From Fistulifera solaris (Eukaryota), in assembly GCA_030295235.1 (NCBI GenBank), contig AP026124.1, positions 2,046,001-2,110,000 of the forward strand: 64,000 nt of DNA, given 5' to 3'. A model generated the notes under the pieces. That model was given only the letters and a program-made list of their open reading frames with translations. It ran no database searches and was not told the DNA's origin. Below, one piece after another: positions 2,814 to 61,719 of this stretch (position 1 is its first letter; every line of letters starts with the position of its first letter). Position numbers and translations under genes: made by a program.

Positions 2814-4508
2814 TCATGTGAAACAGTGCTCACGGAAATCTGCAACAAATTCATCAAGGTCGTCGCTTGAACTTCTACCGGGAAAGTGTTTCATCAGTTC
2901 GGCAAGAAAATCTCGACTGCGAGCTCGCTTAGCAAAGATGTCACACGCGGTTTCGTTCTTCTCCGTAGAGACTTTCACGAGCGGCTTTGCATTTTCTCCG
3001 TCCTCGGAAAACCCGTCGAGAGATTCCATGCAGACATTTTCTTCAATTTGTTTAGGTAATGCATTGAGATGCTTTTGCAACTCAGCGAGTAGTTTGTTCT
3101 CATAATCTTGATACCGACATCTATCGTCGCGGCTATCAGCGTCCAATCTGGGGGCCATACTGGGCTTCTGAGGTTTAACTTTAACGTCGCCAAGACCTGA
3201 GAAAATCAAAATTTTGTTCGTGTTCGTCGCGTCGCCCTTGTGTTCACGCTCGGTGGTCGAAGGATTGCTCCCATCAACGGTAAAAACTTCTTGTTGATCT
3301 TTTGTGTTGCGAATATTCGAGTCGCCTCTCTCATTGAATGGATGGCTGGGATTGAGGTCAGACGAACCGTCGCGAATGGCAGCACCATCAATAGGAAATG
3401 TATTAACTCCGATCTGGATCTTTTCTACAAGAGCTGTTGTCTCGTCCCAAAACAATTGCCAGTCGCGCGGCTCGCTTCCCGAGCTTACTGTTTCGTAGCT
3501 CGCTTGTAAACATGTTTGCAGTCCCGAGACATCCAAAAGCATTGACTGAATATGTCTAAGAACTTGGCTATCGTCACCGTCGGGGGAGATCGCATCTTCT
3601 GGATCGACAATGGCGGAAAAATAGGCATTGGCTTCAGATAGAACCAAACACAGTGATTCGATTCGTTCAAAAGTACTTTCAATTTGTGAGGAGGCAAAGA
3701 AATGATTCAGCATTCGAGTCACAAGGGATGCGCTTTCCTGCCTCAAGCGCTTGAGCGCTACGAGAGTGACCACGCTTGTCTGATCGATCTCATTCACATC
3801 CTGTTCGCATAATTCCAGCAGCAAAGAGTTGATCTCCATCATTTTTTCCTGCAATCTTGTCCGCAAGGCGAATAGTGATGTATGCGAAAGAGATTGTTTT
3901 CTCAAAAACGCTAACTCCAACCGACTCACGCTCCGCGAGGAGGAACCTAGACCGAGCTGGATGCTCGTCGACGCTTGTAAGAAGCGTAAAAGGCGGTCTA
4001 CCGTGTGTATCCATTCCGCAATTTGGCATGTCAGCAAAGTGAGACGGTGCAAGGATTGGCAAGATGGGATGATTCGGAACAGACGGCGGTCAACCTCTAG
4101 TGGTGGAGCACCTATACTGCAGAGTATTCGAGACGTATCGTTTCTAGTCTCTTGATACATCGTCTGTTGTCGTGCCGTCATTCTCTTGTGAATTACTTGA
4201 ATTGCTGCCATTGCGATCATTGTGATTGCCGAACAGGAACCGATCAACAAAACGTTGAAACGGAGAGTTGTTGGTTGAGCCAAGAGTCCTGCACCGAAAG
4301 CAATTATCCCCGTAGCGCAACCATGACAAATTTCACCAAAATGAAGCACCTTGAACGGCTTGACGTCCGATTCCTCTACAGTTGTAAAATCTGGTGTATC
4401 GTTTTTCCCAATCTCGTCGTGCTCCTCGTCGTCCGCGGAAGAAAAGTTATCCAAATGAAACTGAAGTTGAGGGTTTAACATCACTAGACTGGCGTCAATC
4501 ACCAACAA
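2814..4508 (-). CDS. Hypothetical membrane/coiled-coil protein, weakly vezatin-like
   Basis: 564-aa ORF with two N-terminal hydrophobic segments, followed by LRFLQASTSIQLGLGSSSRSVSRLE, which recalls the vezatin motif. Start codon uncertain. Confidence 0.5.
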   Translation of the reverse strand: MLVIDASLVMLNPQLQFHLDNFSSADDEEHDEIGKNDTPDFTTVEESDVKPFKVLHFGEICHGCATGIIAFGAGLLAQPTTLRFNVLLIGSCSAITMIAMAAIQVIHKRMTARQQTMYQETRNDTSRILCSIGAPPLEVDRRLFRIIPSCQSLHRLTLLTCQIAEWIHTVDRLLRFLQASTSIQLGLGSSSRSVSRLELAFLRKQSLSHTSLFALRTRLQEKMMEINSLLLELCEQDVNEIDQTSVVTLVALKRLRQESASLVTRMLNHFFASSQIESTFERIESLCLVLSEANAYFSAIVDPEDAISPDGDDSQVLRHIQSMLLDVSGLQTCLQASYETVSSGSEPRDWQLFWDETTALVEKIQIGVNTFPIDGAAIRDGSSDLNPSHPFNERGDSNIRNTKDQQEVFTVDGSNPSTTEREHKGDATNTNKILIFSGLGDVKVKPQKPSMAPRLDADSRDDRCRYQDYENKLLAELQKHLNALPKQIEENVCMESLDGFSEDGENAKPLVKVSTEKNETACDIFAKRARSRDFLAELMKHFPGRSSSDDLDEFVADFREHCFT

Positions 4509-59476: not shown

Positions 59477-61719
59477 ATGCCAAAGACGAAAGCCAAAGAA
59501 GAAATCACGAAAGAGACTCAACAATCTTCTGCCGATGATTCATTTCAAAGACTGCCTCTCTCGAGTGGCGTTCTCGAATACATCCAGGAACAAAATTTTA
59601 CTCGCATGACACCGGTACAAGCTGCTACCATTCCGCTTTTCCTTGCCTCAAAAGATGTCGCCGTTCAAGCTGTTACAGGCTCCGGCAAAACTCTAGCTTT
59701 TCTTATTCCTGTCGTTGAAGCGATTTTGCGCAAAAAGTTCAAAAAACACCAAGCGGGTGCTTTGATTTTGTCGCCGACCCGCGAGTTGGCGCAACAGACC
59801 CACGCTGTAGCTGCAGCACTGTGCAGACATTGTCAATTAAAGGAACCGCTGCTGCTGGTGGGTGGCTCTTCGGCGGCCAGTAGTTCGGCTTCCACGAGAC
59901 CGGTGACGGCCGACTTGCAATCCTTTCAAGAGATCGGTCACGACATTTTGATCGGAACACCGGGCCGTGTAGAGGACATTTTGACCAAGTATAGCGTCAT
60001 TGATACCTCTGAACTTGAGTATTTGATTTTGGATGAGGCAGATGTCTTATTGAATTTGGGATTTGCCATTACGCTGCAAAGTATTCTGAAGAGGCTTCCG
60101 AAAATGAGACGGACGGGTCTTTTCAGTGCAACCACCTCTTGTACAAATACAAGTCTGAAGGAATGGATGGGGCGAGCTGGTTTGCGTAACCCAGTGTGGA
60201 TTGATGTAGCAGTAACGACCAATGTTGCTGAGACGCGAACGGCCCAGGCGACTCCTACATCACTCACCAACTACTTTTTGGTGTGCCCGTTGGACGAGAA
60301 GCTATCAAGATTGGCTGTTTTCCTGCAAGACCATAGCTCCGAAAAAAATCATCGTGTTTTGTCTCACTTGTGCATGTGTCGATTTTTATGGCAATGCTTT
60401 GAAAGTTTTGCTCCCAACCGTATCGATCGAGCCATTGCACGGGAAAATGGTCCAAAAGCGCCGTGAGAAATCCATGGAACGATTTCGAAGTGACGCGGAA
60501 GGAGGAACTTTACTGTGTACTGATGTGGCAGCTCGGGGGCTGGATGTATCAAACGTGAACTGGGTGGTGCAGTTCGATGCCCCACAGGATCCGGCCTTTT
60601 ACGTTCACCGTGTAGGTCGATCGGCACGAGCTGGAAAATCCGGAAATAGTCTATTGTTTTTGACGAGGAAAGAAGAAGCGTATGTGGACTTGTTAAAAAT
60701 GAGAAAGGTGCCTCTTTCTCCCTTGCCTTCATCGGAACGATGCAGTCCCTTATCCTTGAAAATAATGTAGAAGAGGGGACTGAGAAGGAGGCAACAAAAC
60801 GCAAGGCAGACAAATCAAAAGAAGAGGAACCCACAAAAGGCACTATCCGTTGCGCTGATGGAAGTGAAATCGAAGACATTCTTCCCAAAGTAAAGGATCT
60901 TGTGCTGACCGATCGTGATTTTCTGGAAAAGGTACGAAGGCCTTCACCTCGTACATTCGAGCCTATAAGGAACATCATTGTTCTTTCATTTTCAGGTAAG
61001 CCATTATTTCTTGATTCTTTTCACGCATGGGCGTGCCATTGTGCATTCACTGAACGCCTCCTAAAATGGGAGACGATGTAGTGTTTGGGCTGTGCCGTAG
61101 AGTGCAAAACGATGTTGGACCTGCCGATGATCATCAGTCATTGCTTGTTCCGGGTAGATATCCCTATGTGTGACGTTCTCAGACTCATGAAGGAACCCAA
61201 TGCCCCAACACACCTTATGCTTACCAATACCTTTGTCTTGTATTGGTTCACAGATTCGCTTCCTTGGATTTAGGCTTACTGGCGACAGCGTTCTGTCTGT
61301 TACGATTGCCCAAAATGCCGGAGCTGCAAGACGTTTTACAGAAACACAAGGGTAAACTGCCACGTTTTCAACCCGCGGGTCGTGAAGTTGATATTTTCGC
61401 CATTCCGTATCGTGATAAGGTTCGCGAAACCGCCCGCCAAAAGCGTTTACTGCAGGAGCAGGAAGCCGGAGGTAAGAACGCGAAGCAGTTGCAAGCCGAA
61501 CAGAAAAAGGCCGAAAAAGAGCGCAAATTGCAAGAGAGACGCCAAAAGGCCATGGAAAAGGGTCGAAATCCAGATAAGAAGCGTGGTCGTAATGCTCGTA
61601 TTGTAGATGAGTGGGACGATTTGGCCAAGGAGGAAAGATTGTACAAAAAGTTACGTAAAGGCAAAATCACCAAGGAGGATTTGGAAAAGAGCTTAATGAA
61701 GAATAAGCGTATAAATTAA
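59477..61719 (+). CDS. DDX55: DEAD-box RNA helicase DDX55/SPB4
   Basis: [78 protein letters not shown] and [13 protein letters not shown]. Intron 60996-61253; frameshifts. Confidence 0.95.
61023..61213 (+). ncRNA. Intronic H/ACA RNA, U17/snR30-like
   Basis: 5' hairpin, H box AAACGA (61107-61112), internal hairpin (61117-61151), 3' hairpin carrying m1-like ATATCCCTA (61158-61166) and m2-like AACCCAAT (61194-61201), and ACA (61208-61210). Confidence 0.6.

Follow-up and report, generated by a model that had tools for sequence, protein, structure and literature searches.

U17/snR30 is the one small nucleolar RNA (snoRNA) of the box H/ACA class that is essential for making 18S ribosomal RNA (rRNA). 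The table of PMC7601244 documents it only in animals, fungi and Tetrahymena, to which the available part of PMC2664660 adds Trypanosoma brucei; as of 2021 it was reported as not identified in Arabidopsis (PMC8351944). The RNA possesses an internal hairpin, its 5′ hairpin lacks a pocket (PMC7601244), and it has two motifs, m1 and m2. In Table 1 of the same paper, the m1 consensus, AUAUUCCUA, varies only at its last base and the m2 consensus, AAACCAU, is invariant in all 14 species. Here we analyse a candidate relative of this RNA in the diatom Fistulifera solaris. The element lies in an intron of a gene for a DDX55/SPB4-type DEAD-box helicase, within a stretch of 64,000 nucleotides (assembly GCA_030295235.1, contig AP026124.1, positions 2,046,001 to 2,110,000 of the forward strand) that we call the window and whose numbering is used throughout. 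A literature search found no paper linking U17/snR30 with stramenopiles, in agreement with a preliminary description of the locus, whose author was not aware of U17/snR30 being described in diatoms. Among the most relevant matches, and in the accessible part of PMC4247016, no catalogue of diatom H/ACA snoRNAs was found.

The core of the intron is very probably a box H/ACA snoRNA, for which assembly with the Cbf5, Nop10, Nhp2 and Gar1 proteins and the exact RNA ends are predicted. The features of the RNA and its host are as follows.

61031 to 61213, plus strand: predicted mature box H/ACA snoRNA of about 183 nt, its ends placed from the conserved block (61032-61211), the RNA contigs and the ACA plus 3 nt.
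61031 to 61098, plus strand: 5′ hairpin, a long irregular stem obtained by folding (apical CUCCUA / AAA / UGGGAG).
61107 to 61112, plus strand: H box AAACGA (ANANNA), in the hinge, 8 nt past the 5′ hairpin.
61117 to 61150, plus strand: internal hairpin separating the H box from the 3′ hairpin, obtained by folding (−9.1 kcal/mol).
61152 to 61205, plus strand: 3′ hairpin with a basal stem (P1) and an upper stem (P2), from folding and variants.
61158 to 61166, plus strand: m1-like motif AUAUCCCUA, 8 of 9 positions as in the consensus AUAUUCCUA; its last base is G in runs X3 and X6 and in X1b, the diverged version of the locus in run X1.
61194 to 61200, plus strand: m2-like motif AACCCAA, 5 of 7 positions as in the consensus AAACCAU.
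61208 to 61210, plus strand: ACA box, 14 nt past the last P2 pair (G61193) and preceded by CA after P1.
60996 to 61253, plus strand: GT-AG intron of 258 nt (GTAAGC...CACAG), splitting the codon AG|A after ...CSFIF.
59477 to 61719, plus strand: host gene, a DDX55/SPB4-type DEAD-box helicase (ATG at 59477, stop at 61717-19), from open reading frames, sequence and homologs named DDX55/SPB4.

The hairpins, the H box at 61107-12 and the ACA at 61208-10 had been proposed in the preliminary description, and all were found in place when the sequence was inspected and its parts were folded. The same is true of two motifs on opposite sides of the 3′ internal loop, ATATCCCTA at 61158-66 and AACCCAAT at 61194-61201. 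Two hairpins, a single-stranded hinge and a short tail make up a box H/ACA fold, with the internal hairpin as an additional element. The 3′ hairpin opens with a 5-bp basal stem, a single nucleotide and the m1-like motif; past the upper stem come the m2-like motif and the second strand of the basal stem, then 2 nt and ACA. In this hairpin, P1 pairs GGGUA (61152-56) with UGCCC (61201-05) and P2 extends upward from 61163/61193, leaving a pocket formed by GAUAUC (61157-62) and AACCCAA (61194-61200). This is the sole open pocket of the RNA; the internal loops of the 5′ hairpin measure only 1-3 nt and no pseudouridylation pocket appears there in the minimum free energy fold or in five further suboptimal folds. 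The pocket top lies 14 nt from the ACA, and H/ACA guide geometry has 14-16 nt between pocket top and box (PMC7601244).

A search of public sequencing data in which only the intron served as query listed 19 runs; part of the intron is present in 16 of them, 7 of these being recorded as RNA (14 studies). Four runs (X1, X2, X3 and X6) were compared with the window over positions 60850-61400, uncovered parts in X2, X3 and X6 not being counted as absence. Run X1 carries two versions of the locus, one identical to the window and one diverged (X1b), which could be divergent haplotypes, homeologs or two strains. The diverged version differs at about one site in 10 in the exon, and at more in the intron flanks. 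Its record 3 has 13 differences, all of them listed: 12 fall in the 36 nt of 60996-61031 and one in the 134 nt of 61032-61165 (Fisher p 1.7e-8). In record 5, with 6 of 29 differences unlisted, those listed comprise 4 in 61166-61211, 9 in 61212-61253 and 10 in the following exon. Comparing the core with both intron flanks on listed differences only gave 5 in 180 nt versus 21 in 78 nt (p 2.6e-8), and p was still 1.4e-5 in the worst case, with all six unlisted differences assigned to the core. By listed differences, the block 61032-61211 is also less changed than the adjacent coding exon. Its start coincides with the 5′ hairpin's first pair and its end lies just past the ACA, differences resuming at 61212.

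The metatranscriptome contig from X3 (176 nt, 61031-61206, 4 differences) and that from X6 (166 nt, 61041-61206, 5 differences) come from two different studies and contain the core only, without loose ends; the X1 sequence, by contrast, extends into both exons. Core-only contigs are a weak hint, and contigs cannot show RNA ends or strand. Conservation and the RNA contigs, not sequence statistics, identify the intron core as a real RNA gene. By what is established for intronic snoRNAs, the RNA would be freed from the spliced DDX55 intron through debranching and trimming by exonucleases, and would be shielded by the Cbf5-Nop10-Nhp2-Gar1 set sitting on its boxes H and ACA.

The variants found among the runs fit an H/ACA RNA. 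No difference is listed in the 5′ hairpin for X1, X2, X3 or X6 (4 of the 11 differences of the X2 record and 1 of the 5 of X6 are unlisted). In X1 and X6, an A>T change at 61108 concerns an N of the H box, which becomes AUACGA and is still an ANANNA sequence. The A>T change at 61212 in X1b removes an overlapping ACA (61210-12) and leaves the ACA at 61208-10 intact; the latter is retained in every variant, conservation ending at 61211/12 and the RNA contigs at 61206. In P2, 61166 A>G together with 61190 A>U replaces an A-A mismatch by G.U, U61167.G61189 becomes U-A through 61189 G>A, and 61188 U>A breaks the wobble G61168.U61188 in X1b and X3.

The reading of 60996-61253 as an intron of a DDX55/SPB4 gene, made in the preliminary description, was borne out by the GT-AG borders, by the frame across the split codon and by homologs bearing these names. 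The reading frame of the upstream exon stops at 60993 and translation picks up again at 61255. The nearest named relatives of the helicase are from Thalassiosira sp. (58% identity over 59% of the query) and Triparma laevis (51%), and environmental proteins are up to 70% identical; the search was limited to proteins of 158-504 amino acids, a length range that favours truncated forms. By themselves these relatives would suggest an ochrophyte, most likely a diatom. With the bias towards truncated proteins, 14 of the 15 DDX55 homologs with a 13-residue motif (proteins P0003-P0105) terminate 0-14 residues past FIFR. Several of those ending there carry the residues YV, and one homolog derived from complementary DNA (P0076) continues for at least 26 residues beyond FIFR. 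The early ends fit gene callers halting at a GTATGT/GTAA intron in the same position as here, and from the sequence comparison orthologous DDX55 introns should exist in related diatoms.

Within the DDX55 coding sequence, the assembly shifts frame by one base at no fewer than three homopolymer runs, at 60340-60350, at about 60700-60770 and at 60926-60930. The A-run near 60345 is one base short, as is the run at 60926/7; the latter frameshift is corrected by contigs of runs X1 and X2, which have an extra base after 60926/60927. The frameshifts thus reveal run-length errors in the assembly, though none in the snoRNA motifs. Such errors had also been proposed as one source of the m1 and m2 deviations (TTCC to TCCC). 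That suggestion was sound for the host coding sequence but fails for TTCC to TCCC and for AACCC: short-read contigs of X1, X3 and X6 cover the deviations with no difference listed there, and the deviating letters are real.

As to the function of the RNA, we tentatively favour a diverged U17/snR30 relative, an interpretation that is the leading one and yet short of probable. Such an RNA would have its docking site in the central domain of pre-18S rRNA, where it would serve as a non-modifying folding and processing helper, not as a pseudouridylation guide. Two origins are conceivable, an ortholog whose pairing has weakened and a paralog that has been retargeted; kinship with U17 and any part in 18S processing are what we infer. 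On the favourable side, the m1-like motif reads AUAUCCCU(A/G) across the contigs and agrees with AUAUUCCUA at 8 of 9 positions in the right place, the deviating C being confirmed by short-read contigs. Given a real H/ACA hairpin, the chance of m1 and m2 matches at these places is estimated from per-site rates at roughly 1e-5 to 1e-4. Of the claim that this is a diatom U17/snR30, the layout and the intronic H/ACA nature of the RNA stand; the Rfam match, the identity of m2 and the complementarity to 18S do not.

A series of results weighs against kinship with U17. The RNA models gave no support: at the gathering threshold, Rfam returned no match in the whole window, and at E<=10 no SNORA73 or snR30 match was obtained on 60900-61350 (451 bases) or on the 3′ hairpin (61140-61216). 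The covariance-model check suggested in the preliminary description (U17/SNORA73 and snR30) therefore came out negative. The miss is weak evidence because the Rfam U17/snR30 models were built from animals and yeasts. Within the RNA, the m2-like motif AACCCAA differs from the consensus at 2 of 7 positions. Its spacing to the ACA is 7 nt if the 7-mers are aligned and 8 nt from the hexamer AACCCA, against a reported invariant 7; section 9 of PMC2664660 states the rule that the recognition element lies 7 nt upstream of the ACA, and also that in yeast a one-base insertion in that spacer had no detectable effect. The P2 variants, by their effect on predicted pairs, speak for CCU(A/G)U, a segment of the m1-like motif, being paired inside the upper stem, so that the pocket would consist of GAUAUC and AACCCAA.

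Sequence statistics are likewise unfavourable. The fold energy of the intron is no better than that of shuffled sequences (z 0.33, 120 of 200 shuffles folding equally well; in a second test z 0.14, 109 of 200). With at most one mismatch allowed, the window has 12 m1 sites, where shuffled sequences average 18.3. A composite of m1 (at most one mismatch), m2 (at most two mismatches), 7 nt and ACA occurs once in the window versus a shuffle mean of 0.18, at least one copy being present in 35 of 200 shuffles. Taken alone, a composite motif expected 0.18 times per window counts against a U17 relative, and statistics would not carry the finding.

The sites with which m1 and m2 would pair, rm1 and rm2 in expansion segment 6 (ES6) of 18S rRNA, provide a further test. 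We used 23 diatom-type 18S loci, retrieved with a 25-nt motif from operational taxonomic units (OTUs) in the available part of PMC5739019; two are contigs from prokaryote metagenome-assembled genomes (MAGs) and 21 are metagenome contigs, so the set is not the organism's own 18S. The rm1 sequence GGAAUA is present in all 23 loci and the rm2 sequence UGGUUU in 22; the exception, L121, has UGGUUA. In the portion of the OTU table of PMC5739019 (supplement file 2) available to us, CATGGAATAAT occurs 72 times and CATGGGATAAT twice, in Telonemia and an amoebozoan, both non-diatoms; an OTU labelled Nitzschia palea in the same source has the canonical reading. With rm1 and rm2 unchanged, each helix would contain a central mismatch, C-A or C-U. 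Duplex energies on diatom-type 18S are accordingly lower in magnitude for the candidate (−2.7 and −4.7 kcal/mol) than for the consensus motifs (−6.4 and −5.8 kcal/mol). The idea that the m1 and m2 deviations co-vary with the 18S found no backing, as diatom-type 18S keeps canonical rm1 and rm2 and shows no compensation. Pairing with ES6, another check proposed at the outset, is weak on diatom-type 18S, and by the rule for refutation that the preliminary description itself laid down, a U17 function is not shown. Since the complementarity and model tests failed, we do not class the candidate as a member of the U17/snR30 family.

Several further observations were made on the same 18S set. By duplex energy, the best partner of the consensus m1 in a diatom-type 18S (L126) is not rm1 but the GGGGAGUAUGG stretch, about 300 nt past it. 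The best inverse pair on this stretch scores −12.5, and the 5′ strand of the candidate can pair with the same stretch. As an inverse docking site we considered UAGGGA(C/U)AGUUGGG, downstream of rm2, which offers 8+5 pairs in L110 and 6+5 in most loci; it was set aside as weak and variable. Duplex searches with the whole RNA against 18S gave long spurious duplexes, and shuffles scored equally. Scans of viral contigs for 18S, 28S, the snoRNA core and the DDX55 C-terminus yielded 108 chance matches without an rRNA motif and 57 pattern stretches, none of them confirmed, and otherwise nothing. Two of the loci, L109 and L110, are eukaryotic rDNA binned in bacterial MAGs. In L109 (2872-2992), about 120 bases starting with GTATGT and ending with ACAG interrupt a diatom-type 18S gene between ...CACCAG and GAGTGGAGCC..., an insert resembling a spliceosomal-type intron, here within an rRNA gene. 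L110 (1-594) is chimeric, 18S being joined to unrelated GC-rich sequence just past the retrieval motif.

The alternative that survives best is an ordinary intron-encoded guide, whose 3′-hairpin pocket of 6+7 nt would select a U in rRNA or in a small nuclear RNA (snRNA), the likeness to m1 and m2 being due to chance. Most H/ACA snoRNAs are guides, and the 14-nt distance from pocket to ACA is canonical guide geometry. The P2 variants, in placing CCU(A/G)U of the m1-like motif in the upper stem, leave a normal small pocket, and the canonical ES6 sites do not fit the strands of the candidate. Potential targets were scanned for a 5′ segment pairing with the 3′ strand of the pocket, an unpaired U-N and a 3′ segment pairing with the 5′ strand of the pocket. 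The targets were the full 18S, 5.8S and internal transcribed spacers (ITS1 and ITS2) of four loci, 28S model positions 1-115 and 2912-3401, and a 1037-nt piece of 28S; the last 490 model positions are represented by a diatom-type 28S (L132) and the 1037-nt piece is from a eukaryote (L133). Within the first 1225 model positions of 18S, no bipartite match of at least 10 of 13 pairs had a U as its first unpaired base. Among loosely placed duplexes, none of them convincing with a target U, the best scored −19.0 on 18S, ITS and 5.8S, −13.5 on the 28S 3′ end (L132) and −13.9 on L133. The guide thus finds no canonical U target in 18S, ITS, 5.8S or about 1.6 kb of 28S. In its favour, such a U may lie elsewhere, in the snRNAs or in some 2 kb of 28S between roughly model positions 116 and 2250. 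Against it stand also the combined m1 and m2 likeness at fixed spacing, estimated above as so rare by chance, and the presence of an internal hairpin and a pocket-less 5′ hairpin, both superfluous in a plain guide. An ordinary guide had been the fallback in the preliminary description; with the targets covered so far yielding nothing, we consider it possible but rather unlikely.

An orphan H/ACA ribonucleoprotein that is not U17 by descent, and that would bind the central domain of 18S, where helices 25-27 meet, without modifying it, appears improbable. It draws on the 3′ strand of the pocket, GGAACCCAA (61192-61200), a perfect 9-nt Watson-Crick complement of UUGGGUUCC in 18S, and on the 5′ strand (61158-65), whose 8 pairs, with one bulge, fall on GGGGA(G)UAU two bases further along; the arrangement is topologically that of a productive guide. 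Together the two strands reach −21.9 kcal/mol, compared with −14.8 ± 2.1 for shuffled guides, none of 200 shuffles attaining it. The site is identical in all 11 diatom-type loci that reach it, 11 other loci being too short and one chimeric. By our alignment to the E. coli scheme, UUGGGUUCC-GG-GGGGA(G)UAU, the strongest partner of the candidate in 18S, lies at the junction of helices 25-27. The unpaired target bases are, however, GG and not U-N, so that no pseudouridine is possible. Moreover, G61192 and G61193, which folds and variants place in the upper stem, account for two of the nine pairs, and the remaining 7-mer is unremarkable. The shuffle result is post hoc, several topologies and targets having been tried, and an inverse placement scores as well (−24.4), as a CCC-rich guide easily pairs with G-rich rRNA.

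The same 18S site figures in a related proposal, which we hold to be quite improbable. Here the RNA would descend from U17/snR30 but its docking would have moved off ES6 and onto UUGGGUUCC-GG-GGGGA(G)UAU. With G occupying the place of the target U, it would act there as a non-modifying folding chaperone holding the start of helix 27 open. If true, the relocated docking would mean that this lineage puts the snR30 principle to a second use of its own. Finally, that the core is not a snoRNA, and is instead a conserved structured intron element (serving, for example, splicing or host-gene regulation) or an unrelated transcript, might be argued from its unexceptional fold energy, from the lack of any matching Rfam family and from metatranscriptome contigs that do not fix RNA ends and strand, but is very unlikely, as the conserved block fits snoRNA limits from the first pair of the 5′ hairpin to just past the ACA, the variants respect ANANNA and ACA, the RNA contigs consist of the core without exons or intron flanks, and the splice sites and branch point, where one would look for a splicing element, fall in regions that are diverged here.

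Returning to the favoured interpretation, a diverged U17/snR30 relative would be the first candidate in the stramenopile lineage, and an unusual one in having changed its recognition motifs while the rRNA sites stayed unchanged; the universality of the ES6 clamp would thereby become testable. If the RNA is an ordinary guide, it adds one more intronic snoRNA and has little wider interest.

Compared with known systems, the candidate shares with canonical intron-encoded guides its location in an intron of a ribosome-related host gene, its two boxes, H and ACA, and a pocket lying 14 nt from the latter. It departs from them in having a single pocket and an internal hairpin before the 3′ hairpin, and in the lack of a U target in the rRNA examined. 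From U17/snR30 it differs by its failure to match the covariance models, by its altered m2 and by changes that are uncompensated in diatom-type 18S. Its predicted length of about 183 nt compares with 203-606 nt for the full-length U17/snR30 entries of PMC7601244 Table 1. A precedent for an altered m1 is provided by the snR30 of Trypanosoma brucei, in which, according to the available part of PMC2664660, m1 is off consensus, m2 is invariant and rm1 has compensatory changes; in the candidate both motifs are altered while rm1 and rm2 are not. The likeness to U17/snR30 resides in the overall plan: hairpin-hinge-hairpin-tail with H box and ACA, one more hairpin inside, no pocket in the 5′ hairpin, the m1-like 9-mer on the 5′ side and the m2-like 7-mer on the 3′ side of the loop in the 3′ hairpin. 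It extends to the base of that hairpin. In yeast snR30, the basal helix G532-U536/A597-C600 is followed by the tail A601 G602 and then ACA (PMC2664660 section 10), and the candidate has the same arrangement of a 5-bp basal stem and 2 nt before the ACA.

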